DNA of 63,151 nucleotides, counting the filler, from Reclinomonas americana ATCC 50394 (lineage: Eukaryota), in assembly GCA_048213135.1 (NCBI GenBank). It is 13 parts of 13 records of this genome, joined end to end, with 100 filler letters (N's around TTAATTAATTAA, not from the genome) between each part and the next. Parts side by side here need not be neighbours in the genome. Positions count along the whole stretch, not along the records: positions 7,612 to 17,009 come from AFZH01022325.1; 12 more parts are not named here. The stretch is one strand, 5' to 3'. The notes beneath the pieces are model-generated. The model searched no databases, was not told where the DNA came from, and saw nothing but the letters and a program-made list of their open reading frames with translations. Positions 4,130 to 58,123 of the stretch are shown piece by piece. Position numbers and translations under genes: made by a program. Every line of letters starts with the position of its first letter. Position 1 is the first letter of the stretch.

Positions 4130-4229
4130 NNNNNNNNNNNNNNNNNNNNNNNNNNNNNNNNNNNNNNNNNNNNTTAATTAATTAANNNNNNNNNNNNNNN
4201 NNNNNNNNNNNNNNNNNNNNNNNNNNNNN
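4130..4229. other. Assembly gap spacer N-TTAATTAATTAA-N; also at about 7512, 17010, 20463, 23715, 26909, 30236, 33745, 35935, 47433, 58490 and 61822
   Basis: Identical 100-bp linker with stops in all six frames, present 12 times. Confidence 0.99.
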
Positions 4230-6664: not shown

Positions 6665-7669
6665 TGTGCGCGCGCGCCAAAACAAACAAGACACACACGC
6701 GCACTTCTAACACGACAGAATGATGCGCGGCGTCTCTCTCTCTCTAATAGCGAGTCGCGAGAGATATGCGTGTGCGAGAGGGAGAGAAAGAGAGAGTGGG
6801 AGTGTGTGTGAGGGAGAAAGAGATACCAATATGTGTGGTGCGAGTGGGGGAGAGAGAGAGCGCACACACACAGAGCGGGGAAACAGGTGGCGATCCGCGC
6901 TCTGTGCACTCTCACTCACACGCGCCGCGACACACACACACGCGCGCACACACGAGTTAAACGAACAGTTTTTGGACACGGAGATGAACGTCGCGACGTC
7001 GCAAGCACGCAACCGCCGTTGCTCATGCGAGGCACAGAGAGTGATGCAGATTGCTACACTCACTAAGGCACGTGTAAAAGTGCGCGCGGAAAGTGCTTCT
7101 TTCTGTATGTACGACGTCGCGGATCCTCGACGTTGCAGATACCGGAACGCCATTGCCCAAGCCAGGCTCAGAGAATGATGCAGACGGCTACACTCACTAA
7201 GGCACGTTCAAAGCACGCGCTTGATCCGCTTTTCTCTGTGTTTACGATGCGTTTTGATTTATGCGATGCGCTGAATTGCAAGATGCGGATCAACTGCAAC
7301 GACGGAAGCGCGTCGCAGCGAGTTGCTTCTGCCAGCGTATAAAGCAGAGGAGGATAGATTGATGGATGGATAGGTGAAGAGAAGTGCAGGGTTCTGAGAT
7401 ACGGGACGGAGAACGTCGATCGCATCCATCAGCTTTGCGGTCAGTCAGAAACATTCCGACAAAAAAGGAAAGCAAAAAGGCGGGAAAACAAGTCAGCAAC
7501 GGTTGTCAAACNNNNNNNNNNNNNNNNNNNNNNNNNNNNNNNNNNNNNNNNNNNNTTAATTAATTAANNNNNNNNNNNNNNNNNNNNNNNNNNNNNNNNN
7601 NNNNNNNNNNNACGGGTACGGGTACGGGTACGGTACGGTACGTACGTCGTCGTCGTCGTCGTCGTCGTC

Positions 7670-7738
<69 letters not shown>

Positions 7739-7792
7739 TCTCTTGCTATCTTTGGTGTCCTCGCGTCACGTAATGTCTCACCTGGGCGGTGT

Positions 7793-10700
7793 ATGCACAC
7801 AGCTGCTCACCAGGAGCGCGTGAAACACACTGAGATGGAAGGCATCGTCGAGGTACACTGATTGTGTGTCATTCCGAGATGAGCGTGTCTCTCAGTAATC
7901 TCTCTCTCTCTCTGGCGTGTTTGGCACAGCAACGCGCGAGGAGGCGGCGAGTCGACTCGTCTCTGGTGGATCACCATGAGGACTCGCCTGCACGTGACTC
8001 AGAAGAGGCATCAGCTCGCAAGCGTTCTCTGGAGGTGAGCTCCAATAAGACACGCGTCTCAACTTGCCTCTCGCTTGTGCATCGCAGTTGACACCTGATG
8101 TTTTCTCTTCGTTCTCCACAGGTGGATGCATCCAGCGATGACGAGCTGGCACCGCCAAAGAAGAAGACGAAGGTGTGGATATTCTGTCGCTGAACATTGT
8201 TGTGCTTGTTCGTAGATCTGCATTTGGTTCTTGTGTGTCATCGTGATTTCACAGGGTGGCCAGGGTCAAGCTGCGAAAGAGCCAGAGGAGTTGAGCGCAG
8301 ATGAGAAGCTGTTGCTGAACAAGCTGCTTGTTGCGTGTGCATGCTCTCGCATCATCATTGCAACCCATCTCCTCGTCGCACTCACTATTCTTCGTGTCAC
8401 TCGCAGCGATGCAATCGGAAGAAGGTTCTGGTGAAGGCATTCGGCCTGTTGGCGCCTTTTGTTCAGAAATCTACAGTCCTCTACCATCAGAGTGTTCTCT
8501 TTGAGCTGGCCTGTGACGAGCGCGGAATTCCGTTGTCGGAACGGAGTCGCACGTCGTCCGCTGTCAAGTGTGCATTCGGCAAGAGTCTTGGCTTGAGTGC
8601 CATGGGTTTACGCGCCAGAACGCCAAAATCAGTGGAAGGTGTGCTCCGGCGAGTGGGCAACTACATCGAGGTGAGCAAGCATGTACGCCTGAAACGACCG
8701 TGGCATGTGAACCGACATGCAGGTGATTGCAATCTGCAGATGAGCCAGCTCTCTGGCGAGGCTCTGGTGGATGCCGTTGAGAGACCACTGATTGTGGTGG
8801 ATGAGCGCGGGTATTCGAAAGTGTGTTTGTGATGCATGATTTTCTGCTTGTGTTGTGATCATGTCGACTGACGTACGTTTACTCGGCTTGCTTGTGACAG
8901 GAATCGTGGGTGAGATTGGCACCGCTAAACAAGACCAAGAAAGACAATCTTCAGCCGTTTGTCAAGCAGGCCATGGATGCGTTGCGCGAGTGCAATGGTC
9001 TCATGGCTGCTCTGCTTCGAGACAGCCACCTCTCTGAGTCCGAGATGTCACGTGCTGTCGCTTGGTGTCATTCGAAAGGTCTGCGATCTCAAGTGGCAGT
9101 TAGTGTTGCTTGTGTTGGTGTTGATCAGCACCACGCAGAATCTGGCGGTGTGAAGATGGTGATGAAGGAGGAGAAGGATGTGGAAGAAGAGAAGGATGCC
9201 GTCAAGCTTGAACACGATGACACCAAGGTACGCAGCAATAGTACATGAGTAACGTAGGCTTGGTGCGAATGTGGGAGTCTTCATCGACTCTGTGAAGCGT
9301 TAACGTCTTGTGTGTCCGCAGGTGGAGACCGGCAGTGACAGTGACGAAGAATCGAAGCCGAGCAAGGTACGATGATACAATGTCTGTGTATGGTTGGTTG
9401 GTGAGGCAGGCTTGCTGATTGTGGATGTCGCGTCGCGTGTGCATTTGCAGCGCGTCAATCGCGATCGTCGTGTGCATGATGCGGAGATGAGCAAGGACGA
9501 GCGAATGGTGTTGGACAGACTGCTTGTTGCGTGTCGTGTGCATGTGCACAGCACTCGCCAAGGCTGAGTGATTGATTCTTCCGTGTGCATGCTTGTTGTA
9601 ACACTTGTATTGTGTATGTGCAAACAGCGATGCAACAAGAAGAAGATACTGGTGAAGGCATTCGGCATCATGGCTCCTGTTGTGAAACGACACGCAGTCT
9701 GGCATCATCGGCGAGTTCTTGTTCAACTCGCCTGCAAGGAGTGCGGCATCTCATCATCTGGAAGAGACAGTCTGTGGTCTGCAGTCATGGACTCATTCGG
9801 CAAGAGCCTTGGGTTTTTTGTCCAACATTCACGCGCCAACACACCCAAGTCCGTTGAGGGAGTACTTCAGAGCATGAGCACGTTCATCGAGGTGAGTATC
9901 TGTCTGTTCTGTCCATCTCACACATAACTAGAAAGTGAGCCAACAACGATGCGTGTGCAACTGCACAGAAGAGCGAACTGCACGGCGCCGCACTGGCGAA
10001 TGCCATCGAGAGACCACTGATTGTGGTGGATGAACGTGGTTATTCTGAGGTGCGCCAACTTTTCACTGTGTGCTTCGTGTATTTCTGCTTTTTGAGTTGT
10101 TGACTTACGTGCTTCTTCCACGATGTCGGTCGTGCTGTAGAACTCATGGAAGATGATGGAGAGGAAACGGAAGAGCAACGATCCTCTCCTGCCGCTCATC
10201 GCCCAAGCCGCGCAGGCGCTACGGGAGTGCCCTGGCTTGCAAGCGTCGCTGATTCGCGACGGCTGTCTCTCTGAGGCGGAGATTGCACGCGCCGTCGAGT
10301 GGTGCAGCGAAAGAGGTTGATGACATCGGATGCGTTCTACTGTGCTTGGGGTCAGAACTGACGAGCGAGTTGCAGCTCTGCTGGAGGCGAAGGTGATGAA
10401 AAAAGAAGAGATGAAGGAGGAGGAGGAGGAACGGGAGGATGATTCGAGGGAAGAAATGGACGACGATGAGGGCGACGACGTGGGCGACGGTGAAAGGAGC
10501 AAGGTACGACCATGTTTGGTGTGGCGGTTATGCACACTGTGACAGCATCTCATGATGCGCATTCACAGCAACGAGGGAGAGGTTCTGCAATGATGAGCAA
10601 AGACGAACAGCTGTTGCTGGCGAGGCTTCTTGTTGCGTGTGTTTGCATTTATGGCCTTCTCTGGCAGTCGTCTGGCTGATTGAGTGACCGATGTGTTCCA

Positions 10701-13608
10701 TGCGGGAGCAGTGCTGCAACAAGAAAAAGGTATTGGTGATGGCATTTGGCATCATGGCACCGATGGCGATGAAATCCACCGTCCACCATCACCAGCGTGT
10801 TCTTGTTGACTTGGCATGCAAGGAGTGTGGCATCCCTCCATCGAAAGCAGGCTGCCTGTCGTCGGCAGTTATGAGCTCATTTGGCAAGAGTTTTGTCGGT
10901 GTCGTCCAACATGCACGCACCAAGACGCCTAAGTCAGTGGAGGGAGTGCTCCAGATGATGAGCGATTTTATTGAGGTGAGTATCGTCCATATTACTTGAC
11001 TGAATCAATCAACGGCCAGCGCTAAAGCATGTACCGCAATGCAGAAGAGTGAACTGCGTGGCGCTGCCCTGACGGACGGCATTGAGAGACCTGTGGTTTT
11101 GGTGGATGAACGCGGCTATTCTGAGGTATGCCTGCCTTGTGCTCTGTGTACTTTGTGTGTCGTGAATGGTGTTTTCTCACATTCTGTGCTCTGGAATTCG
11201 GTTGTCAGGAGTCATCGCGCTTGCGCAACCAGCAGAATCCGTTTCTGCCATTTGTCACACAGTCCGTAGATGCCTTCCACAACTGTCCAAGCCTGCTGGC
11301 CACACTTCTTCGAGACGGCTGTCTGTCCGAGTCGGAGATCACACGTGCTGTCGAGTGGTGCAGTGGACGAGGTTCGGCTGTGTGGATTCTTTACTGCACT
11401 TTGTGCACATGTGCTCATTAACGACTGAAAAGCTCTGAGGGAGATGGAGATGGTGAAGAAAGAAGAGAAGTGGGAGGACGAGCAGGAGGATAAGGACGAT
11501 GGCAAGGTACGCCCCCATCGCCCGTTTCCATTAGATGCGAGACGAGTTCGTGTCCCAACTTTGTGTTGATTGTCTTTCACAGCACAGCAAGAGTGGATCT
11601 GCGAAGCTGAGCATCAACGAGCACTTGATGCTGTCGAAACTGCTTGTTGCGTGTTGCTGTTATCTCTATGCATGTCGCCGACATTGCTGTCACTCTCATC
11701 TGCTCACCACATCTTGGAGCAGGGTTGCAACAGGAAGAGGATGATGGTGAAGGCATTCGGCCTCATGGCACCCGTGGTGCTCAGATCCACAGTCCTCTAT
11801 CATCAGCGTGCTCTCTTCCAACTTGCCTGTGACGAATGCGGAGTGCCGTCGGAGGGACCAGGCTGGCCTTCAGCCGCAGTCATTTCTGCATTTGGCAAGG
11901 GTCTTGCCAAAAGAGCCGACACGGCACGCACCACAACGCCCAAGTCGGTGGAGGGCGTGCTCGAGAGTGTGAGCAGCTTCGTAGAGGCGAGTGTCGGTGT
12001 GGTGTTGCAGTGTCCTTCCGATTGTTATGTGCGCGGTACCTGACTTGTCTTCGACGTGGATGTCACCATCAGAAGAGTGGTCTTCGCGAAGCTGAGCTTC
12101 TGAATGCTGTCGAGAGACCGCTGATTGTGATTGACGAATGTGGCTACTCTGAGGCGCGTATGAATTGTGTGTGCTGATGTGCGTCATTGAAAGCTGGCTC
12201 ACATTGCTGTGGCTCGGATGGTAGGAATCAACAGCAAAATCGCAGAAGGGAGGCACTCCTAATGTTCTTTCGCCATTCGTTACCCAGGCCAGGCAAGCTC
12301 TTTGCAAATGTCCTCGCCTGCTGGCCACTCTGCTACGGGACGGCTGTTTACCGGAGGCGGAGATTGCACGCGCCGTCGAGTGGTGCAGTGAAAGAGGTTG
12401 GACTGCTTGTCTTCGTGGCTGCACTGTGCATGCATGTACTCACAAGCAAGTGACCAGTCGTCAGGGAGATGGAGATGGCGAAGAAAGAGGAGGAGAGGGA
12501 GGGTGAGCAGGAAGAAGACGATGACGACAGCGAAAATGAGGGCGATGACGCGAAGGGAAAGAAGGTACGCCCGACGCCCTCTTCAGTGAGATGCGAGGGG
12601 TACATCTTAATATTACGTGGCTTGTGTTTCACAGCGCCGCAAGATTGATCTTGCAAAGTTGAGCGTCAATGAGCAATTGATGCTGGCGAAACTGCTTGTT
12701 GCGTGTTTCTCTGTATGCCGCCACTGATGCTGTCATAACCTGCTCACCTTCATCCACCCGTCCATCTCTCGAGAGCAGAGATGCAACAGGAAGAGGATTC
12801 TGGTGAAGGCGTTTGGCCTCATGGCGCCCGTGGTGACGCCATCCACAGTTCTCCATCATCAGCGTGCTCTCTTCCAACTTGCCTGCGACGAATGCGGCTT
12901 ATTGTCAGGGGGACAGGGCTGCCCGTCATCCGCAGTTATGTCTGCATTTATCAAGAGTCTTGCCGGTAGTGCCAAGGTTGCACGCAATACGACGCCCAAG
13001 GCAGCTGATGGTGTTCTCGAGAGCGTGAGCATCTTTGTGGAGGTGAGTGTTAGTTTGCTTTCTTTGTGTCACATCCGTTTGTGGTGTGTTTGGCAACTGA
13101 TTTGCCTTCCATCTGCGCTTGTCATCATCAGAAAAGCGGACTTCGAGGAGCTGAACTGGTGGATGCTGGCGAGAGGCCTTTGATTGTGATTGATGAGCGT
13201 GGCTATTCTGAGGCATGTCTCATGATGTGTGGTTCTGTGTATCAATGACTCTTTACTTACTTTCTCGTTTTCGATTGACAGGAATCAGCAGAGTTACCGA
13301 AGAGTGGCAGGCCTGATTTTCTTCTGCCATTCGTCACACAGGCCATGGATATGCTCCGCACCTGCCCTGGCCTGCTGGCCACTCTGCTTCGAAATGGTTG
13401 CCTTTCGAAGGAGGAGATTGACCGTGCCGGTGAGCGCACCAAGTGCAACAATCTGAGAGCAACTGGTGTCGTTGCTCGTCGTGCCATCGTCAGTACTGAC
13501 GAGCACGCTGCAGTGCTGGGTGACGAGAAACCGGTGAAGATGGAGGTGGTGAAGAAAGAGGAGGAGGAGGAGGAGGAGGAGGAGGAGGAGGAGGACGAGG
13601 ACGTGTAG
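7793..13608 (+). CDS. Hypothetical nuclear protein with five tandem copies of an unrecognised ~190-aa domain separated by acidic linkers
   Basis: Exons splice into one open frame. Each unit reads LLxKLL|xCNxKxxLVKAFGxMAP...LACxECG...FGKSL...TPKSVEGVL...E|...ERPLIVVDERGYSE|...LPFVxQ...CPGLLATLLRDGxLSExEIxRAVEWC with the same intron positions. NLS-like PPKKKTK near the N-terminus; stop TAG at 13606-13608. The start codon is uncertain. Confidence 0.85.
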
Positions 13609-13960
13609 AGCAAGCAATTCAAGTTGGTGATGGAGAAGGACTTGGATGTGAACAGCAAGACAATGCTGTGGATGGACGATGATATATGCCTGCACCGGTG
13701 CGTGACGAAGGGTGTGGGAGTGAGAGACTGTGGGAGGGATAAGAGAGAAAGGGGAAGAGATTGCATGTTGTTTGTGGGATCGCAAAGCTTGTCGCAGAGA
13801 AAAAAAGAAAAAGAAGCACAGTGCACCAAGTGGACACTTGGAGCAACGACCGGAGGGACTCTGCATGTTAGTATCGTCTTCGTGCAGCTGACTACGGTTG
13901 CCGCAGGAGGAAGAGCGAGACGAATGAAGGAAGATTAGAACCAATTAAACCATATTTCAT

Positions 13961-16900
13961 TCACTCGGCCCAACTTGTCACACTCGACGAGGGCGAATCT
14001 AGCAAATCTACCGACGCCTGCAGCCGCGACGACGACATCGGTGACAAATGACGCGCCGAGTCCACCAGCGACTGATCCTGCATCCCGCTGGCCATCAACT
14101 CGGTGTCGATACTCAAGTCGCGATCGGTGGCCACCGGCGAGTACGGATGCACCTGATCACGTGCCGCAAGCCGATGCTCCATCATTAGCCGATTCATCTG
14201 CGCCATGTCGTGTGAGTGCATTCAACCTAATGCTGAAGAGTGACACTGGCGACCGCACCTGTGCATCCAGCTCGTCCTGCCCAACTGGTAGCATGGCGGC
14301 ATCAGTGCGCAGTCGAACATCGGACCGCGGAATGACCACACCAGCTGCATTTGTTCCAGCTCTAAAGGGCTTGATCTTGTGCTGGCCTCTGCAAGAGTAA
14401 ACGGGAAGAGAGCGTGAGTGACGATAAACTGTCTTTGTCTCACTAAATCAATCAAAAATTAGTTAGTTCTCCAAGTCTCTCGCTCCTCTCCCTCTCTGAG
14501 TCTCTCCTCTCTCTCTCTCTCTCACTCTGTCTCTCTCACTCTCTCACTCTCTCGTTCTCTCTCTCAGTCTCTTTCTGTCTCTCAAGTTTCTCTCAGTCCC
14601 TTTCTGTTCCTTTCAGTCTCACCCTCCTTTCTCAGTCTCTCCTTCTCTCCCATTCTCTCTCATTCTCTCTCATTCTCTCCCATTCTCTCCCATTCTCTGC
14701 CATTCTCTCTCTCGCTCTCAGTCCCTCTCCGTCTCTTTCAATCTCTCTCTCTTCTTTCTCAGTCTCTCTCAGTCTCTCGCAGCCTCTCATTCTCTCTCTC
14801 AGTCTCTTTCAGTCTCTCTCAGTCTTCCTCTTCGTTTCTCTCTCAGTATCTCCCAGTCCCTTTCTGTCCCTTCCTACACTCTCCCATTCTCTCTCATTCT
14901 CTCCCATTCTCACTCATTCTCTCTCAGTCTCCCTCCTCTCTCATTCTAAGACTCTCTCTTCTCTTTTCTTCCCCCTCTCTCCTTCCCCCTCTCTCAGCCC
15001 CTCACTCACCCCTCCATCGGCAACCCGTCGCCGGTCACCGCCACCTGATGCTGATGATGGTGATGCTGATGCTGATGCAGTTGTTGATCCTTCTTCTCCC
15101 GCCTCCTGGCCGACAACGGCCCTCGAGGCGTCGTCGTCGCCGTACTGCTGGCCGGCCGTGCACTGTCCACCGCCACCGTCAGCCGCCGCAACGATCCCGT
15201 CTTGGCGTCGCGCACAAAGTGATTGAGCAGCGGGTTCGACGTCGTGCCGCACACGCCGCAAAAATTGGTCGACTTGCCCGGCTCCACCACGCCACCCACC
15301 AAATCCGTCTGACTCTTTCGCGTGTTGCGATACAAGCGCGGTGTGAGCACCGTAAAGTTGGGCGACGGCTGAGCGAGAGATTCACGGTGAGGCCAGCGGG
15401 AGACGGGGGGTGGACGCAGAAAAATGTAACACAACGTAAACGGTTGGCGACGACAGGCGATCGAGCACACCGAGAAGGCGCTCGGTGGCCGACGCATCGG
15501 GTCGAGGGGTTTGCTGCTGCTGCTGTTTCTGCAGCATGTCAGCGACCGGAAGTAGGGGTACACCAGAGGGAAGCGCCACGCGTGGAGTGCGTGCTCCGCG
15601 TGCCGAGTCTGCACGGAGGGTGAAGGTGAGGAAACAGAGAGGGAGGAAGGGGGGAAGGAAAGAGGGAGAAAGGGGGATGGAAAGAGATATCGTTGAGATA
15701 GGAATGCAGTTGAATAGGGAGGGAAGAATGGCAATCATGCAAACGAAGAACGACCTCAAAATGGGTGAAGGAGTGAAGGGGAAGAATTCACAACCTCAAA
15801 AATGGGTGCCGAAACGCAACAGGGAAAGAAGGTGTAAAGCGGAAAAGGATGGACGACCTCAAAAGTGGGTGAAGGAAACGCAACGGGTAGAGGAGGGCAG
15901 GAATGCACGACCTCACAGATCGGAAAGAGAAAGAGGGAGGAACGAAAGTTACGAGACGATTGCTGGAGAAAATACGCTTCCTGCAATACCGGCGCAACAC
16001 AGAGTGGAAGAGAGCATCTTACAGTGCAGCAGTGAAGAATGAACAAAGGACTCAAGCGTCAACGGCCTCAAAAAACACAGAAAGAAATGAAGTGAGAGAC
16101 AAGGTGTGAAGGAGGTGAAGGGAAAGAAGATGCGACGCGCGGATGAATAAACGAAATGCATGGGGAAAGAATAGAGGGAGCCAAAAAGGACGTCTCTCAC
16201 ATCCATGCCTTCGCAAGACAACGAAACAAGCAACGAACGTGTCGACCACAAGAAGGAAGCAACAACGAAAACCGTACACCAGCATGCACGGCCTCACATT
16301 CAATTGCGGCAGACAGAAAGCACAAGAAGGGTGACATCATGTCTAGACTTGCGATGGTTAACCGGACAGGAATGAACAGACGCACAAGAGCACAGCAGTC
16401 CAGGTTAATCACGCCATCGTACAAAGGGAGTCAAACAACTGCCAACTTCAGTCGCACCAAAATAACAGTAGAGAACTTCTGCGCGAGTCAGAGCGCGCTT
16501 TTCTCCCTCTACTCTGCCTCTCGCACCACACTCACCCAACGGCAATCTTGGAGTCGGTGCTGATGAATCGTGCGGCGTGGACCCAAGAGAGGGAACCGAC
16601 GAGAGCGGCAACGACGGCGCAGGATGCGGCTCCGGGAATGCCGAGTTGTCAAGCAGCACGCGAACTGGGTCCTCCAACACCGCGTCTGCAGAAGGAGAGA
16701 CATTTCGTTAGATTTCCTCTCGTCGACCACCAGAAAATACAACAAGCAATGCCTCACAACGCTCCCTCCCCAACAAAGTCATCTCGCCTCCACGAAGGAG
16801 GAGAGCTCTTCGTGCCTTCCTCTTACCCTCTCAACTTGCCTTCCTCCCCCTTCCCATCCCCCCTCCCATCCCCCTCACCATTCTTCTGCTGCAGCGCTGC

Positions 16901-17009
16901 ATTCCTCGGCGTCCTCAGCGTACTCCGCAAACCACCCCCACTGCGTCCAGACGAGGCGCGCTTCTCCGCCGCCGGCGGCGGAGGTGGTGGCTGCTGCTGC
17001 TGCTGCTGC
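13961..17009 (-). CDS. Hypothetical low-complexity (Q/P/S/H-rich) protein, 5' partial
   Basis: Phase-consistent GT-AG exons at about 17009-16880, 16685-16517, 15608-15441, 15391-15010, 14390-14341, 14284-14259 and 14197-13961 (...VGQDELDAQ|MNRLMMEHR...SWAE*). One CxxC (FCGVCG). Confidence 0.6.
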
Positions 17010-17121
17010 NNNNNNNNNNNNNNNNNNNNNNNNNNNNNNNNNNNNNNNNNNNNTTAATTAATTAANNNNNNNNNNNNNNNNNNNNNNNNNNNNNNNNNNN
17101 NNNNNNNNNCCTCTCTCTCCT

Positions 17122-47532: not shown

Positions 47533-49828
47533 TCTCTTTGTGTACACCGCGCAACTCACCAACGTTGATTGTCGCCTGCAGTCCATCAAGCAGCAATGGC
47601 GGCGTTGACAGTTTGTCAGCGCGACGCACTGTGACACTGGCCGGGTCGCGCATTGTGTTGCTCTCACCGCCCTCGTCATTGTCATCGTCGTCGTCGCGTC
47701 CATCGTCGGCAAGAAGCTCTGTCATGTCGCCTCCTGCGCCTCCTCCACCACCGCTGGAGCGGCCGCTGTCGGGCAGGCGCGTCATGGACTCGATGCTGCT
47801 CAGCACGGGCGCGGACGATGTCAGTGAGAGGCTGCGTGCGTGGCGGCAGAGTGGAGGCTTTGGGAAGGGCAGTGTCACGCCGAAGCAGCGTGCAGCCAAG
47901 GTGGCGGCGGCGGCGGCAGCTGCGGCGGCTGAGGAGCACGATGAGGAGACACCGGGGGCGTCGCCGCCACTGACTGAGCGGCTGCTCATGTATGAGCCGC
48001 CAGAGTCGCCGCCCACGTCCATGCCACCCTCGGCAGTGCGTACCCCCTCTTTCTCACTCTTTCTCTCGTCATACCCACATTGTTCCGCTGCAGCGCACGA
48101 TGAACAGCTTTGGGAGTGTGATGATGCAGACGGGTGACAGCAGCAGTGGTATGCGGAAGCAGCGGTTCAAGCGGGCCGCGTTGTCGCCGCGTCCGCGATT
48201 GGCGTTTGTGCCGCCACTGGTGCGATTGCATGTCGGTGGCGCGGCGCAGATTACCGAGGTGGAGCATGAGGTGCTGGTGGCGCAGAGTGGGAGTGGTCGC
48301 TCGACAGCGCGACGTGCCAGCTTTGCCGACGTGTCGGGAAGGCGGCCCGAGTCACCCGGCCGGTCCATCTCGCCGACGCTGGCGGAGCCACGCAGGGCGA
48401 GTCTGTCGTCGGCCATGATGATGGAGTCTCGCCGCGGCAGTCTCTCTGCGTTGGTCATGGCGGCGGCTGTGCGACGGTCTTCACCGTCGCCGACATCGGG
48501 TGGTGAAACATCGTCTCGCACCTCGTCACCGGGTACTGCCGGTGGCAGTGGTCGCAGCCTGCGCTCGTCATCCATGTCGCCACGGCAACGCGTCCTCACG
48601 CCACTGCAAAGACCAGCAGTTGCGCCGCTCCCCCTCCTTCACCCGCCGATGTTGCTTCTGTCGCATGTTTTATTGAATCCGTTGTGCAGAGCACGGCAGT
48701 CAAGCCCGGCTTCAACTCGACGGAGCGCAAGTTCTACCAGCGGAGTGTTGCGTCTTGTCACCCGAGTCTCCGGAGATGAGGGAGGGAGGAGGGTAAGAAG
48801 TCTCATGTGCTTGTGTGGCAGCGTGTGTACACTCGACCGCAAGCGCCGCCTGGCTGGGGAGGCGAAGAAGGTGCGCGAGGGCGTCCGCAATCGGCACCGC
48901 AGGGTCCACGGCCGGTTTCACCCGGCCCGCCACCTTTAGTTTTGTTCCTGGGGACGCGCTCCGCGTTTGCTTTATATTTTTCCTCACTGCTCTCTTTGCA
49001 TCGCCAGGCCAGAGACGCATCTCCGCGACCCTCGTCTGCGGTGCGTGACCTTTGTGCGAAGCGTGTTGTTTGTCGATGACTCACCACCGTGCGCAGCGTC
49101 CGGGGTCGGCACGATACCAGCCGCGACCGATGGTTTGCCACTGCACACGTTGTGTTGTTTTCACACCTCTCCTGACTCCCTGTCAATCAGAGTGCAAGTA
49201 GTCAAGGTGGCAACCGCCACGTGCATCCCGGCCACGAAGAAGAGTCGACGCCGCGGTCGTACAAGGAGTCACCGAGACGACCAGGCTTCGCCTCCACCGG
49301 CAGCATGGCGCACCAGCGACGAGATGTGCACCCGACTGGCGACTTGCTCGGCTACATTAGCTGGAGCGTGGCAGACACGCTGCCGGGCACACCGGTGTGT
49401 TTCCAACATCTCTCTCTCTTTTTCTGTTTGTTTGCTTGGGGTGGCATTGCCGCGTGCTGAATGCACTTGTATGTGTGCAGCGATCGCCAGCGAACCGGCC
49501 CCTCTCTGCACGTGGCGCGCCACCGAGAAAAGTGCCTGTTGTTGCGTCCCTCTGTGGTTTTCTCGTCCTGTGTGCCTGTGCCACCTCGCAACTCCCACTC
49601 ATGCACCCGAGCAGAAGTCGCTGCGAATCAACATCCCGCATGTTGCGTCGACATGGCGTGCGGCGATGGTGCCTCCTTTGCTTTTCTCTCATGGCCGCTT
49701 GTGTTCCCATCTCACAGTCATCAGCGGAGGGTCAACAGGTGCCGCGTGGACGCGGTCTACTACTCCTGGCTCCCGGACACTCGCCACTCGAGGGAGGTGG
49801 CGTGCTGGTGGAGAGCCCGGCCACCTGA
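47533..49828 (+). CDS. Hypothetical S/P/R-rich protein, 5' partial
   Basis: Long coding-like exons at 47533-48035 and 48094-48618 followed by short GT-AG exons; the likely stop TGA at 49826-49828 depends on an uncertain frame. Confidence 0.5.
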
Positions 49829-49865
49829 ATCAGACATGTATATTAATTACACGCCCTACAAAAAT

Positions 49866-51982
49866 CTACGCACTGCTGCTGCTGCTGCTGCTGCTCTTCC
49901 ACGCGTTCCACTGCTCGATGGGCAGGTTGAAGGAGGACGCCAGTCGATGTCCACCGCCTCCGTACGACTTGGAGATGACTGCAGCGATTGTGCGTGAGTG
50001 ACTCTTTCGAGGTCAAGGCACACGGCGTCGCGCACCTTCAGTGTTTTCCTCGCCAATGCCTCGCAGCGAAATCTTGATCATGTTCCTGTTGCGACACAGG
50101 AGTTGTGAGGCACCGCTCAAAATAATGGAGCGTGGATACGGAGCGCAACGGAGGGAGTGACGGATCCACTGTTTGCACGACAGCAAGTGAGAACAAGGTG
50201 TAACGCGGTGTGAAGAAACAGGTGTTACACGTACGTACCGTACGCCACAACACCGATGGCACGCAAACCCATGGCTGTTGCATCGCAATGTCAGTCCTCC
50301 ATGCAATGCCATGTTGTGCAACACGAGAGATGGAAAATCACCCACCAGCACTGCGTGAGGCAAGTTGGTTGCCGAGATCCGAACGCAGTCCGGATTGCTC
50401 GAATGGCACCTGAGTGTGGATGGTGAGAATGCGATAGGCGGCGGAGCGCACCAACACTCGATTCACTCGCCTCCACAGCCAAGCAGCGGCCAACACTGGA
50501 CGGTCCAGCACCAAGCGAGATCGTCGCAGCAGTGCCCACAATGCCGTCAATCTCCAGCTGACGACCGGTCAACTTGCTGCGACCGGCGGCAACCAGCGCC
50601 GAGGGATCAATGCCCTGCAGCGTCTCAAAAATGCCCGGGTTCACTCGCGCGTCAAACTCCAGACCGAGTGCTGCCGCGGGAGTGAGTGGACGCACCCGTT
50701 CACGCAGCAATGAACAACATTACCAAACCTGCAAAGCCGCTACCGAAAGCCTGCACAGGGACAAGAAAGCTAACTCAGCAAAGTAAACAAGAAGAAATCC
50801 ACGGGAAAGCAGTCACCTTCCACTCCTTGTCTGCATTGCAGAGGGACAAGTCAGCGACACACAACTCAATGCAGATCACACTCAGATCATACGCACCACC
50901 TCCATCACGCCACAAATCGCCGTCCTGCCACGTATCACGAGTGAGTTGTCCGCACTCTTCACTGTCCACGATAATGCACGCACCTCCACCAACAAAAACG
51001 CTCGATGCAGACGCGCAGCAGCCTCCGTGCTGCCGGCCAACAACTCGGCCGACGTCTGCTGACCGCGCACATCGCTCCACTCCTCCCTCAGTCGCGCCGC
51101 AAAATAATCCCACGAGATCGTGGCCCCACTGCGCTTCATGTCCAGATGCAACTCCACATTCAACGGCAGCCGCCCACCCTGCGACGACACATGTCAGCAG
51201 ACAACTCTCGCGACCCACCAGAGCGGGGTACACACACACAGACACGGAACATCGGCCAGCTCCTCCGCCTCGTCCAGTGCCGTCTTGTGATGATCGAGAA
51301 CGACAATCTGCACGCGCGTGCGCGTGTGAGAGACACGTTGGAGGGCAGCAGACACAAACGAGCGAAAACAAACCGTGCTCTTTGGCAACGCAGCCGCCAG
51401 CTCACACACAAAGCCACGAGGTCCCATGTAGTCACACAGGTACACTGCACACACACACACACACACACCAACAGTGCGTCAATGCGACACACACACAGTG
51501 AATGCATGCACACATGCAAATCACCTCGCTTGGTGTGCTCCGGATGCACCGGCAGCTCATTCACCTGCAAGCGACGCGTCACCTGATGCGGAACAAAGGC
51601 CACCGACTCACCACTGCGCACACACACGCACACACAGATGAGACACAATGAGAGACAGTGCACAACGAGACACACGCGCACGTTCGATGATGATACAGCC
51701 AGGCACCAAATGCCGCAAAGATACCATCAACGCACTGCACATGCCAGTGAGCACACACATGGGCGAGCACACACGCAGTGATTGGCACACACGCAACGGG
51801 ATAGTGATAGAGCACCACAGTGCTGCTGAACGATTGCTGCTCAGCTGCGAGCGCGGAAGAGTCAGAAACACTCACTCACACACACAAGGAGAGAGAGACA
51901 CACACACACCATGCATCGCCAGTGCCACCGACGATGTCATGTACAGACACAGCGGGGCCGCCCTGGCCAAGTAGCGCATCAT
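49866..51982 (-). CDS. DHH-family phosphoesterase with C-terminal DHHA1 domain
   Basis: VVLYHYP|CVDGIFAA, VYLCDYMGP, IVVLDHHKTA, LDMKRSGATISWDYF, VE|DGDLWR, LRSDLGNQLA, IKISLRG, SYGGGGHRLASSF; stop TAG at 49866. Confidence 0.92.
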
Positions 51983-52048
51983 GTTGCAACGAAGAGAGCA
52001 GTTGTCCTCTCGCGTTGCGTCGTCCCCCTTCATTTTTCCGACATAACA

Positions 52049-53328
52049 ATGAGAGCGTTGGTGGCGCTCACCTGTGGCGCCAGTCTGCTGATGCTGACGA
52101 CACAGCGTCGTCAGCGTTCACTGACGATGCACGCTGCCACGCAAGAGGCACAACTCGTGTCGCGACAAGACGCGGCTCGTGTGCTGCAGTCGTGCGTGCG
52201 ACCTGTGTGCACGCTGCTGCCGACTGACAACGAGCGTCTGCCGTTTGTTCTTGAGTACATTTGTGGTGTGCGTCGTCCGCACTTGATTGTGGTGCCGGTG
52301 GACCACGACAGCATGCGTTGCGTCTCTTTGTCGCGATTGTCAGGGTGGGTGCAAGACTGAGCGTCGCTCGCTCGCAGCCACCGATCTGTGTGAGAGCGAG
52401 TGGTCGCTGCAGGTGCGCCTCTGGGAGACGGTGCAGCGGACGGTGCAGGCGGTGCGGCAGCGTGGAGCTCGAGGCACGGTCAAGGTCTCGTTCCATCAGG
52501 GGTCGTGGCGAACGTGTGACTGGATGCACGTGCATGTGGTGCTGCGGACGAGCGAGTACGTCTCGCTGCTGCAGCAAGACAGCAAGGAAAACGATAGAAA
52601 GGTGGATGTGGCGTTCTGGCAACAGTTTGACGAGCGACTCCTTGCTCGCAGTCTCTCGTACCGCGAGGCCGACAGTGCACAGGCGGCACAGGTGCAGTGC
52701 ACGGGCTCATGTCCGCCTGTTTCTGGCGAGCGCTTCCGTCTCTTCGACGACGCAGACGTGCAACGTGAGTTGAAGCGGCTGCAGCAGCCGGAGCGTGACA
52801 GCAACACCAACAACAACAACACCCACCCACGCATCCACCCGTCTGCTCTACCCCAGGTCTCCCCTCGTGCTCACGCTGTGCATGTTCGTGTGTTGCATGA
52901 GCTGACTCGACGCATGCGCAGTTGCAGATGGCGGCGAACTCGGCCGTGGAGGTGACACTCGACGACACACTGGCTCGAGTGCACTTTACCGTTCCTCACG
53001 ACGACAACAACAACGACGACGACGTGGATTTTGTCAGCCAATGCGGCCGCTTGTACCTGTGCATGATGCTGTTCTACGGCGCCAAGAGACTCCGCGATGC
53101 GCACTTGGTGTTGGTGTTTGACGGTGAGTTCATTCTCTCCTACGCCCCGTCACTTGCTCGACGACAAGCACTGAGCCGCACACCCTTTTCTGATCAGATG
53201 CGACCACGCCGAAATGCACGCACGGCTACGTGCGGCTTGCGCCTGCCGAGTACGTCTGTGTCCATCCGCATCGCGACAATTGGCTTGAGGCGTACCGACA
53301 CGCCGCGGATCCCACCATTGACACGTGA
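52049..53328 (+). CDS. HIT-like superfamily protein (divergent)
   Basis: RPHLIVVP followed by VSFHQGSWRTCDWMHVHVV (partial histidine triad); four phase-consistent exons; stop TGA at 53326-53328. Confidence 0.55.
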
Positions 53329-53369
53329 GTGAAACAATCGCCACGCGCAGCTGTTCGTTCTCCACGCGG

Positions 53370-54734
53370 TCATGAGGCCTCTGGCTGTTCACGATGCCAC
53401 GGCCACTCGGTATTGAAGGTGTCGAGCAGCAAGTCGCGCATGGCGCTGTCCTTGCGCACGGCCAGCAGATCCACGACGCACCACGAGAGGCCGCCCAGTC
53501 TCGTGTGTGAGTCCTGACACATCTCATAGTCGCTGTCCCACCACACCCCTGAAACGGGCAGCAGAAGACCGTCGCCGAGTGCATACAGCTCGTAGCCCAT
53601 GACGTGCACGGCCATGGCAAAATCGCGCAGCGTTGGACTCGGCACGTCGCCAATGGCGCGTGGTGCCGGGTACTTGCGCATGCTTGCCGCTCGATACACG
53701 CCGTTCCACATGAGCGAGTACTCGAACGAGGCCAGCTCCACCAGCCCGGCCCGGAGCAAGCCCTCCATGCCGGCCAACACATGTGACTCCCAACCCTCGA
53801 CATCGACCTTGACGTAGAGAATGCGCCGACCGGCCAGCAAACGCGCTCGCTCGTCGGTGGCAAACAGCGAATCCAGTGTGGTGACAAACACACGGTCCAC
53901 CTTCTCCCCGTGCACACCGGCGGCGACCTCGCGCTCCGACGGCGGTCGCAGAGAGAACAAGTTGCCGGCCCCCACTTCCTTGGAGGCCAGCGAGTACAGC
54001 GGCAACTGTCCGACCGTGTCACCCAGGGCCACCTTGTGCAACTGGAAGGTCGTGCTGGTGCTGTCGGCGTCGGTGATGTTGAAGCGACGCTGCAGCTCCT
54101 GCCGCAGCATGCGATGCGCACGACTGGCCGGCTCAAAGGCCACCACGTGGCACCCACCGCGCATCAGCTCATACGCCATCAGCGCATCCGACGCGTCCAT
54201 GTCGTCGTTCCAGTGCGCCGCCCCCACATCTACGATAATCGGCCACGGTTGCGCCAGCGCTGCGTGTGCCTTGCTGTCGCGCTCTCGCAACTCCGACAGC
54301 GCTCGTCCATACACCCAACGCGCCAGTCGTTTCAGCGGACCAGGCGATCCTCCGGCCGAGTGATGAAACGCGCGACCGTGCTTCCGATACCAGTCGGTGA
54401 GGCGCGAGCGCATGCGCAGCGTGTGCGTCAGTTGCACAGTGGACATGGATGGGCCGGTCGCAGACTGGAAGGCGAGTGTGTGTGAGAGAGAGGGAGAAAA
54501 GGAAGAGGGGGGAGAGAGAGACGCAACGCTGCACAGGCGCTCGCCGATGCGCTCCAACGCAGAGAGAGTGGATGAGTCGCGACGACGCGTGGCAGTTGTC
54601 GGCATTGTGGAGGTGGTGGTGCTCGTGGACTCCATCGCTGAATGGAGAGCAGTGAAGAGCAGCAAGCTGCCGAGCACACAGCCGAGTGTGAGGCCGGCCA
54701 GGAAGGTCAGGGCCAGTGCCCATGATGGGCGCAT
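53370..54734 (-). CDS. FkbM-family (Methyltransf_21) SAM-dependent methyltransferase with an N-terminal membrane anchor
   Basis: Hydrophobic WALALTFLAGLTLGCVLGSLLLF; IVDVGA, VVAFEP, VALG, TTLDSL, YVKVDVEGWESHVLAG; probable in-frame intron at 54527-54465. Confidence 0.9.
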   Translation of the reverse strand: MRPSWALALTFLAGLTLGCVLGSLLLFTALHSAMESTSTTTSTMPTTATRRRDSSTLSALERIGERLCSVASLSPPSSFSPSLSHTLAFQSATGPSMSTVQLTHTLRMRSRLTDWYRKHGRAFHHSAGGSPGPLKRLARWVYGRALSELRERDSKAHAALAQPWPIIVDVGAAHWNDDMDASDALMAYELMRGGCHVVAFEPASRAHRMLRQELQRRFNITDADSTSTTFQLHKVALGDTVGQLPLYSLASKEVGAGNLFSLRPPSEREVAAGVHGEKVDRVFVTTLDSLFATDERARLLAGRRILYVKVDVEGWESHVLAGMEGLLRAGLVELASFEYSLMWNGVYRAASMRKYPAPRAIGDVPSPTLRDFAMAVHVMGYELYALGDGLLLPVSGVWWDSDYEMCQDSHTRLGGLSWCVVDLLAVRKDSAMRDLLLDTFNTEWPWHREQPEAS

Positions 54735-54851
54735 CGATGATGAAGAAACCACGCAATCGTCCCACAGCGTCCGATATCACTTTGCTTCCTTGACAACAAC
54801 AAAGCACGACTGCCGCGACGTGATGCTTGCTAATACATCATCACAGTTCAC

Positions 54852-57035
54852 TTATGTGTCGTTCTCTCCGCGATCGGTCACCGAGTCCCACTGATCGGTC
54901 CATAGCACCACCATGTCTTCGGGAAGTGGATCGGGCTGCAGAAAGGAAGTGAGAAGAAGCTGTCGAGCCAGACAGACAACACGATGAATGCTGTACGCAC
55001 CGAGTTGATCTCTACAAAGGGGTCGGGGATCGGCATGCTGATCGAGGCGGTTTCCATCGACGGCAGCTTGCGCAGACTCTCCGACACTCGCGGCAGCGGT
55101 AATGGCACATGTTCGGTAAAGCGGTGGTGAATGGTGTTGGCTTCGCTGACGCCGCGTGATAATCTGTAGGCATTGGTGAGGAAAAAAGGGGCAGCAAGCG
55201 AGCAAACAGTGTCGACAAACTCAGTACCTTCTCTCGCGCATGCGAGCACGAATGTCGTCCAATGATGGTGGCTTCGGGGCGAAGAACGCCGACTTTTCCA
55301 GCTCACCATCCAACCGGATCCACTCAAACACACGGACGTTGATCGGCAACGGCTGCAACGATGCCAACCGCTGCAGCAATGCCGAGCAGAGGCGGTTCGG
55401 CAGCTTGTTGCTGGGCGACACGACACTGGAGCTCGACACGCCCGTCAGCACCGACCCGTTCATCGATGCCGCGTTCGGAGTGGCCGGCAGAGTCGATGGT
55501 ACCACCGACGACGACACCATCGTAACCAGAGGGTGCGATTCAGCACTGGCGCCCATGTGGCGCTCGTGTAACCGCAAGCTCGAATCCAACTCGGCCTCCA
55601 GACGGCGTGCCAACACGGCCTGTGGAGTGGGCACGAGCACACCGGCACCCCCACCAGCAGCACCACCTGCACCCGCCACAAATGCGCTGTTCCTTCTGTG
55701 GCCTGCAGCACCGCTGTCTCCGCTAACATCAATGGCCTCCACATCCTCCTCCACCAGGTGCTCCAGATGCATCAGTGCCGGCTTTTGTTGCTCGGCGCCG
55801 TGAGCGGGAGACAGCGAGAGAGCATGCAGGCCGCTGGCAAAATGCCTCCGCAGCCAACCGGCCGACGGATTCGTAGTCCGTGGTGGCGACTGTCCGAGCA
55901 ACAGTGGTGGCAGCTGCTGTGCAACGTCGTCGGCATTGTCGGCGCCGACGGTGTTGTCTTGATCGTGGTCGCCGATCTTGGCGGCGGCCTGAGCCCGCAC
56001 CGACAGTGGCGCCAGAGCACTGCGTTCGGTGAAGGCTGGTGCGGATGGGCTGAGAACGCGTTCGCTGCGGTTGTCCATGTCACCCGCCTGCGCCATGTTG
56101 GGCAGCGGCGAGATCGCACCCGACAAGTCGTCGCGAGTGTCGTCCAACGGCGCATGTGCCGCACACTCCGACACCACCTGCATGTCGTCCAGGAATCCCG
56201 CGTGCTCCATCAAGCGTCTCGGACGGATTCCCTGGCTCTTGGTCGACAGTGGAGTCTCTGGAGGTCGGCGGTGGCTGGAGAGCGTGGACGCCTCGGCCAA
56301 GACACGAGCCGGCGTGGATGCGACGACGGCCGGGGGGCACGTGCGTGGCGACACAACCACGCTGCCAGCAGTCTGATCAGGTCGTGCGTGACGGTACTCG
56401 TACAGTGCCTGCGCGTGCAGCGACGACACGGGCGTCGACGGCGATGTGGGCGACACGGCCGGAACCACCACCTGAATCGGCGGTAACCGAGCCACGCGAA
56501 CCACCGGCGACTTGCTGCCGACAGCAACCGCCGCCGCAGCACCACCACCACCACCACCAATGGCCACCACCGCATGCAACTTGTCGGACTCGGAAGGGAC
56601 GCGAGTCATGGGCGACCGTGACACGCGTTGTCTCGGCGGTGGCGATGGTGTCGCCAAGTCACGGTGCGCATGCGAGGAGGATGACGACGACGACGACGAC
56701 GACGACGCTGGCGATGACGGCACAGAGTCGGCGACGGCGATGTAGCCACTGCAGGGCGACTGTGGTGCCGGCGGAAGCGAGGGTGTGACAGTGGACGAGA
56801 ACGACAGGCGACGGCAGGCGGCGGTGAGTCCCGACACGGCCGACGAGGCCGGACACAGTGGCGATGGCGGCTGTGACGGGGCAACAAACGGGTATCGCAC
56901 AGTCGACGAAGTCACCGACGACAGTCCGCACGCTGCGAGATGAGCACGCGGCGAGAGTGACGTTTGGAATCCGGTGGCCGGTCGCGGACCACCGCCGACG
57001 CCACCAGCAATGTGGGCGCTGCAACCACACCCCAT
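54852..57035 (-). CDS. S/P-rich hypothetical protein with an N-terminal dual-acylation motif (MGCGCS)
   Basis: Long first exon from ATG 57035, then two in-phase exons ending TDRGENDT*. Confidence 0.7.
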
Positions 57036-58123
57036 GATCTGTGCGTGTGTCTCTGTGTACACTCCGTTTGTCAGTGCACACCTGGGCACGCAGACGAGGA
57101 GACAAAAGGGACGGACCGACTGGAAAAAGTGGTCGTTGCAGCAAGCACGCGCTGTGCTCGATGACCAGTTTTTGTTCGCGGAATACCAGGCAATCGCGCA
57201 CGGTGCTTGTGTGCTTGTGCGAGAGAAAGCGCGGGAGAGTGAAGGGGGAGAGAGTGTGTGCGAGGTTGCGCTGGCGCGCCAACAGCGTGTCAAGGAGTTG
57301 TGTGGATTTCGCGACGGCGATGATGTGAGGGTAACCGACACATGATGACCAAATCTGGATTGTTGGTGGTTGGTTTTCGCATTTGGTTCCCTCCCTCGCT
57401 GCACACTCACTGCTGCAGTGCTACTCACGAAGGCATAACGTAAAGCATCGTCGATGGAAGCTCACTCTGCGGCATGCGTGCGTGCGTGCGTGCGGAATGC
57501 AGTATGCATCGAATGTATGCCAGCGCTGGTTTTTTTGTTTTTCCGCTGGCTTGTGATTGCAGAAAAGGCAGCACAAGAGTGACTCACTGGGCGTCACCAC
57601 ACCAAACCGAATGCTTCGATCCACCGCCGCGAAAAAGAAGCAGAGGACTGCATGCGGATCCATGCAAGCACGAAAGATGTCGCACACGATGCAGCGATGC
57701 AGCGACGCAGCGATCACCTGGCCTCACACAGGCAAGGCGACCAAGGGGACATTGAGCTGTGCTCTACTGTGCGCCCCTGTGCATGCATGCAGCAGCTTCT
57801 GCGCGCGTGAATCTCGATTTCCAGCGAGTGCGAAACCTGAAGCAGTGAGACATGGATGAACGGTTTCCCCGCCCCCACATCCTCTGCATCTATCCTCATC
57901 ATTGGTTCGTTCACGCTGCATAGCATCACTCTGCACAGTCATTTACCTTGCGATCTCTCGCCATTTGACGCAAAAGACGTTGCTCGCGAGTCGACCGTTT
58001 CTTCCTCAATTCATCCATCAGGCGAGAACAAGCACCAGCCAAGCATCAAGCCACACGCACGCACCTCTCTCTCGCTTTCACACACTTACACGCCAGTCAC
58101 TTTCACCACTCGTTACGTGCACA

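Follow-up and report, generated by a model that had tools for sequence, protein, structure and literature searches.

A five-fold repeated domain without detectable relatives in a putative nuclear protein of Reclinomonas americana

Introduction

Proteins of the UBF and HMGB types carry several tandem basic helical DNA-binding boxes together with an acidic tail, and the acidic tails of HMG-box proteins modulate or compete with binding. These proteins provide the closest described layout to that of a gene from Reclinomonas americana ATCC 50394 (GenBank assembly GCA_048213135.1), the subject of this report, the predicted product of which contains five tandem copies of one module. The likeness concerns layout only and not membership, and consists of several basic modules, predicted to be helical, in a single chain, acidic stretches, an acidic C-terminal tail, and clusters resembling nuclear localization signals (NLSs). 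In contrast to UBF and HMGB, the five-unit protein was assigned to neither the HMG box nor any other Pfam family in listings extending to E up to 10 (the sub-threshold scores are given below), its modules of ~175-180 amino acids are over twice the size of an HMG box, and it has conserved Cys/His columns as well as acidic stretches between every pair of modules.

The gene was found in a window of 63,151 nucleotides (nt), filler included, to which all positions refer. This window consists of 13 contigs joined end to end, and at each of the 12 joins two runs of 44 N (24 in total) flank a 12-nt linker composed only of A and T. The joins lie at 4130-4229, 7512-7611, 17010-17109 and nine more places, and neighborhood across them is meaningless. 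The five-unit gene is contained in the piece from 7612 to 17009.

Gene structure and the repeated exon cassette

For the gene model, the sequence from 7500 to 14000 was translated in three frames and exons were placed by coordinate. The modelled coding gene, its N-terminal region, and its five units are listed below, with the exons of each unit lettered a to e.

7835..13608, + strand, whole coding gene with 28 exons and 27 introns; stop codon at 13606-13608
7835..8172, + strand, N-terminal charged region; exons 7835-7852, 7930-8034 and 8122-8172
8255..9366, + strand, unit 1; exons a 8255-8329, b 8407-8670, c 8740-8820, d 8901-9078, e 9139-9227, and an additional linker exon 9322-9366
9451..10503, + strand, unit 2; exons a 9451-9525, b 9628-9891, c 9969-10049, d 10141-10315, e 10376-10503 (acidic linker)
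10569..11506, + strand, unit 3; exons a 10569-10631, b 10712-10975, c 11045-11125, d 11209-11371, e 11433-11506
11583..12564, + strand, unit 4; exons a 11583-11645, b 11723-11986 (GC donor), c 12073-12153 (GC donor), d 12225-12396, e 12458-12564
12635..13608, + strand, unit 5; exons a 12635-12697, b 12779-13042, c 13132-13212 (GC donor), d+e 13282-13608

The five starts agree with those in a preliminary description of this DNA, which differed only in placing the last at 12636. Exon b is 264 nt long and exon c 81 nt long in all five units, and the linker exon at 9322-9366 is an extra exon present in unit 1 only. The conserved core of the module comprises ~175-180 amino acids, and a whole unit with its linker 215-244. 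The introns of the cassette occupy homologous sites, in agreement with the conserved positions described previously, and have phases 0, 0, 0 and 1, with the exception of the fourth intron of unit 5, which is ambiguous. In that unit the ancestral donor was lost while the acceptor at 13513, which is homologous to those of exon e in units 2-4 (repeat family D7), was kept. Either of two introns could be removed in frame (13430-13513, 84 nt with a GTGAGC donor, or 13466-13513, 48 nt), and reading through is likewise in frame. The C-terminal end of unit 5 is a poly-Glu tail (13534-13605). The cassette is bounded by phase 0 at both ends, and therefore duplication of the whole cassette keeps the frame.

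The likeness between the units is beyond chance. A repeat finder independently recovered each of the segments of exons a, b, c, and d (families D8, D1, D5 and D3, respectively) five times, at spacings of 1,011-1,237 nt. Profiles built from exon b and exon d each returned exactly five matches in the six-frame translation of the window, all within this gene, and the next-best matches in the window had E values of 0.45 (exon b) and 0.2 (exon d). When the exon b sequences of units 1 and 5 were compared directly by BLASTP, an E value of 2e-31 was obtained.

The coding sequence spliced from the ATG at 7835 is 3,696 nt long and yields a protein of 1,231 amino acids and ~136 kDa with zero internal stops (exon boundaries were checked by script), and the intact frame noted previously is thereby upheld. 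An ATG at 7793, in frame with that at 7835, would lengthen the protein by 14 amino acids. Because the contig extends no further upstream than 7612, the true 5' end of the gene is uncertain. The first stretch of this contig (7612-7745), immediately 5' of the first ATG, is taken up by stacked microsatellites, which comprise an (ACGGGT)n-like repeat, (CGT)n and a long (CT)n, and the end of the gene that adjoins them may be incomplete. The N-terminal region, which combines acidic stretches rich in Ser with an RRRR cluster and the NLS-like PPKKKTK, is encoded by three exons that were modelled from splice signals and the open frame alone, with no repeat to back them.

The 27 introns have a median length of 77 nt (range 60-102). 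Twenty-four have GT donors and three GC donors, and all 27 acceptors are AG (CAG in 24, TAG in 2, and AAG in 1). If retained, 25 of the introns would disrupt the frame through an in-frame stop or a frameshift; unit 1 alone holds the two that would be frame-neutral (8671-8739 and 9079-9138). The GC content at third codon positions is 0.63 versus 0.49 in the introns, the exons being purine-rich and the introns T-rich, and the piece as a whole has a GC content of ~0.52-0.54 with a G-rich coding strand. Antisense open reading frames (ORFs) of 182-225 amino acids were considered as genes and rejected, as they gave no family match and the strand opposite to them is the purine-rich coding strand. Because the introns between units are short (65-94 nt) and in phase and no in-frame stop is present, the five units are probably expressed as a single transcript.

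Splice donors

The first intron of each unit begins with an unusual donor, illustrated here by that of unit 1.

8330..8406, + strand, first intron of unit 1, beginning with the GTTGCGTGT donor

The same GTTGCGTGT opens the first intron of all five units (8330, 9526, 10632, 11646 and 12698), in each case after an exon ending in T, and it is the sole conserved stretch of this intron (repeat family D8). Thus, the five GTTGCG donors are all preceded by T, compared with G for 21 and A for one of the other 22 donors. The possibility that GTTGCGTGT is a coding continuation of exon a (read as 'LVAC') was rejected, as no consistent downstream donor could be found across the units. The GC donors, found in 3 of the 27 introns (11987, 12154 and 13213), each follow an exon ending in G.

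Conservation and selection

Among the five units, 29 of 88 columns are invariant in exon b, 11 of 27 in exon c, and 12 of 59 in exon d. Protein identity over the whole unit is 47-66%, with values of 66% for units 4 and 5 and 61% for units 2 and 3, and unit 1 is the most diverged (47-50% identical to the others). The invariant or near-invariant blocks are CN, AFGxxAP, LACxExG, TPKxxxGVL, ERPxxxxDExGYS and CxxLxAxLxR. All of the blocks listed in the preliminary description were therefore recovered, with the correction that the TPK block has three variable residues rather than two.

Nucleotide identity between units is 66-79% over exons b and c, whereas the intron interiors are only 0.29-0.43 identical, a range close to that of shuffled controls (0.29-0.37), as would be anticipated from the previous remark that the introns have diverged. 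The ratio of nonsynonymous to synonymous substitution rates (dN/dS) was calculated for all 10 pairs of units and lies between 0.22 and 0.38, with dS between 0.62 and 1.42. The purifying selection proposed earlier is thus borne out, none of the ratios being near 1.

Searches for relatives

Both the searches for relatives and the folding described in the next section were carried out on contiguous translations, and the searches therefore ran exon by exon, which reduces their sensitivity. Pfam-A was searched with 20 pieces, namely the N-terminal exons, exons b, c, and d from the units, two read-through segments, and four ORFs of the antisense strand, and no family reached the gathering cut-off in listings to E of 1 or 10. 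The best scores of sense pieces, both below the cut-off, were for DUF6987 (E = 0.085) and for GeBP-like_C (E = 0.02, on an acidic linker). On none of the pieces was HMG_box matched at E up to 1 or 10. Against PDB sequences, the exon b profile had no matches and the exon d profile had two, at E = 3.3 and 7.

A HMMER search of 1.84 billion representative proteins with the five-copy exon b profile resulted in a single match at E up to 0.001, a public protein designated P0001 (E = 2.3e-4). Like the protein described here, P0001 is a five-fold repeat protein, and a 35-residue stretch of it aligns to the middle of exon b. Its repeat is ~97 amino acids long, however, compared with ~175-180 for the module core. 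P0001 is not counted as a relative because hhalign gave a probability of only 26%, with 26% identity, over 35 columns; the E value was summed from five weak stretches, and the match is treated as probably a chance or compositional one. P0001 is 488 amino acids long, its repeats bear Cys, and it belongs to no obvious family.

When exons b and d were searched against longer proteins through a word index, no relative was found, which is weak evidence by the search's own rating. In metagenome contigs, 125 pattern matches to exon b and 416 to exon c were obtained, and in viral contigs 66; none of these was confirmed. Of 61 pattern matches in prokaryote genomes, 2 were reported as 'confirmed', with a confirmed stretch of just 16-17 residues in which the search pattern itself is contained; both were taken as chance. 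The ESM Atlas gave no usable match for exon b or exon d, and its 'recognition' values of 1306 and 1422 are under the level typical of known families. The module thus lacks detectable relatives in Pfam, PDB sequences, the representative protein set, metagenome, viral, and prokaryote DNA, and the ESM Atlas, in agreement with the initial impression of an unrecognised family.

An origin of the gene within a multicopy family that descends from a mobile element or virus, rather than as an ordinary host gene, was also considered. No transposase, integrase, or viral match was found among the pieces in Pfam or, for viral matches, in the viral contigs. The 27 introns are of host type, GTTGCG donors included, the units are under purifying selection, and the gene is present as a single copy on its 9.4-kb contig. 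We therefore consider such an origin very improbable.

Predicted structure and catalytic motifs

A 138-amino acid piece of unit 1, consisting of exon b, the in-frame intron, and exon c, was folded with AlphaFold2 (AF2) using a nine-row alignment, and the mean predicted local distance difference test score (pLDDT) was 57. Within the exon b part, five helices were predicted at residues 4-15, 21-38, 43-46, 51-71 and 76-92, with a pLDDT of 78-87 solely over residues 21-60, and the exon c part had no confident structure. In the exon d piece (59 amino acids, mean pLDDT 67), a variable basic lead-in precedes three predicted helices (17-30, 32-40 and 46-58). Fold searches with the modelled pieces returned only matches inside the stated noise for helical models. 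These models suggest, at low confidence, that the module is mostly helical and without a recognisable fold.

Catalytic modules were also considered, either as nucleoside triphosphatases (NTPases) in which the hhhhDE stretch serves as Walker B or as metal-dependent hydrolases or nucleases that use the invariant D-E of ERPxxxxDExGYS. The motif hhhhD[DE] is present in all five units (LIVVDE in units 1 and 2, followed by VVLVDE, LIVIDE and LIVIDE), a feature shared with P-loop NTPases, although the motif alone is not specific. Invariance is also seen in the loop motifs AFGxxAP, TPK and ERPxxxxDExGYS, and because AF2 gave no confident structure in exon c, a strand is possible there. Unlike P-loop NTPases, however, the protein has no Walker A: the pattern GxxxxGK[ST] has 0 matches in the 1,231 amino acids, even when relaxed to [AG]xxxxGK[ST]. 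The preliminary description had pointed out both the Walker B-like stretch and the failure of FGKS to fit the Walker A consensus, and both observations hold. FGKS itself is found in three of the five units, with FGKG in unit 4 and FIKS in unit 5. A simple PD...(D/E)xK pattern likewise had no match in the protein, although such motifs are too loose for a pattern search to be decisive. Furthermore, the folded pieces are predicted to be helical, and even at E up to 10 neither an NTPase nor any other enzyme family was found in Pfam. A chain with the same enzyme domain in five tandem copies would also be unusual. The enzymatic option raised by the preliminary description is accordingly disfavoured, given the lack of Walker A in any unit, the variation in FGKS, and the predicted helical character of the folded pieces at low confidence, and we regard it as quite improbable.

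Charge pattern and proposed function

The whole protein has an isoelectric point (pI) of 5.9, with a marked alternation along the chain: the module cores have a pI of 8.8-9.5, and the linkers and tail one of 4.0-4.4, consistent with the E/D-rich linkers described at the outset. Clusters of K and R are found at residues 7-13, 52-58 (PPKKKTK) and 983-989 (KGKKRRK). The second of these, encoded at 8152-8172, is the NLS-like sequence that had been likened to that of simian virus 40 (SV40), and it was found as described. The protein also contains 23 CK2-like S/TxxD/E sites.

In the alignment of the units, seven columns have Cys or His in at least four of the five units, and four such columns are invariant (three Cys and one His). 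In one column, unit 1 has His and units 2-5 have Cys, an exchange that metal ligands tolerate. By sequence count, at least four conserved Cys/His positions are present, the number expected of a generic zinc module, suggesting that the modules may be stabilised by zinc.

Our tentatively preferred explanation is that the gene encodes a nuclear, non-enzymatic, multivalent binding protein specific to its lineage. The modules would descend from a five-exon cassette, symmetric in phase (0 to 0), that was duplicated repeatedly in tandem long ago, and they have been retained under purifying selection. Each basic module, possibly zinc-stabilised, may bind a polyanionic or chromatin ligand, and the acidic linkers and tail could modulate or compete with this binding. 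The earlier reading of a putative nuclear or chromatin-binding protein is plausible in this respect, as it fits the basic clusters, basic modules, and acidic linkers seen in the translated sequence.

A scaffold outside the nucleus, e.g., a cytoskeletal or flagellar protein in which the modules serve as protein-protein interaction domains, would also account for helical modules that match no family. Every unit opens with an LxxLL-type helix (LNKLL, LDRLL, LARLL, LSKLL and LAKLL in units 1-5), and LxxLL is a type of motif used in protein-protein contacts. The basic modules, acidic linkers, and three K/R clusters nevertheless suit a nuclear protein better, and the matches of the fold searches are at noise level. 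Such a scaffold is possible, if rather unlikely.

The linkers end in K/R-rich stretches (SK|R, SK|QRGR, GK|HSK and KGKK|RRK, with the bar marking the junction), which would be compatible with a polyprotein that is cut at these basic ends into five single-module proteins. The junctions are not uniform, however. The protein begins with a charged sequence rather than a signal peptide, and therefore dibasic processing in the secretory pathway is unlikely on general grounds. We consider cleavage into single modules extremely improbable.

Several points weigh against a nuclear, non-enzymatic binding protein. Acidic linkers and basic clusters are found in cytoplasmic proteins too, and conservation like that of the invariant AFGxxAP, TPK and ERPxxxxDExGYS is also found in active sites. 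The models of the pieces are of low confidence, with the mean pLDDT values of 57 and 67 given above. The two conserved stretches of highest hydrophobicity, VLVKAFG and PLIVVDE, may correspond to beta strands in an alpha/beta core; AF2 places the former in a low-confidence helix and leaves the latter unstructured. Given that folding and searching were piecewise only, the module may also have a remote kinship to a known fold, that of an enzyme included.

Other features of the window

In the remainder of the contig that carries the five-unit gene, no second gene was recognised between the gene and the contig end at 17009. The region 3' of the gene at 14447-15623 includes ~1 kb of CT-rich low-complexity sequence with long Ser/Leu 'ORFs' that match no family. 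On other contigs of the window, two domains were identified.

954-2936, - strand, long open frame with a DEAD/DEAH-box helicase domain (PF00270, E = 1.8e-35)
53370-54776, - strand, FkbM-type methyltransferase domain (PF05050, E = 2.6e-10)

The second of these is on one of the contigs at 48000-58000, which have a GC content of ~0.61 compared with ~0.52-0.55 elsewhere in the window. These GC-rich contigs may reflect heterogeneous composition or a mixed bin.

Implications

The gene provides a convenient internal test set for the unusual GTTGCG and GC donors in the R. americana genome. It also offers a clean case of domain amplification by duplication of a symmetric exon cassette, with five five-exon cassettes that are each bounded by phase 0.

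Repeat proteins without known relatives are frequent in protists that have been sparsely sampled. A more far-reaching possibility, which we consider unlikely, is that the module represents a new fold or family of one protist lineage, i.e., a zinc-stabilised helical domain of ~180 amino acids that binds nucleic acid or chromatin and has been multiplied within and between genes as a class of chromatin architectural proteins. If the module is truly without relatives, it would constitute a new domain of considerable size that arose within a single protist lineage, was multiplied as a cassette, and was held under long selection, the synonymous sites between its copies being near saturation.

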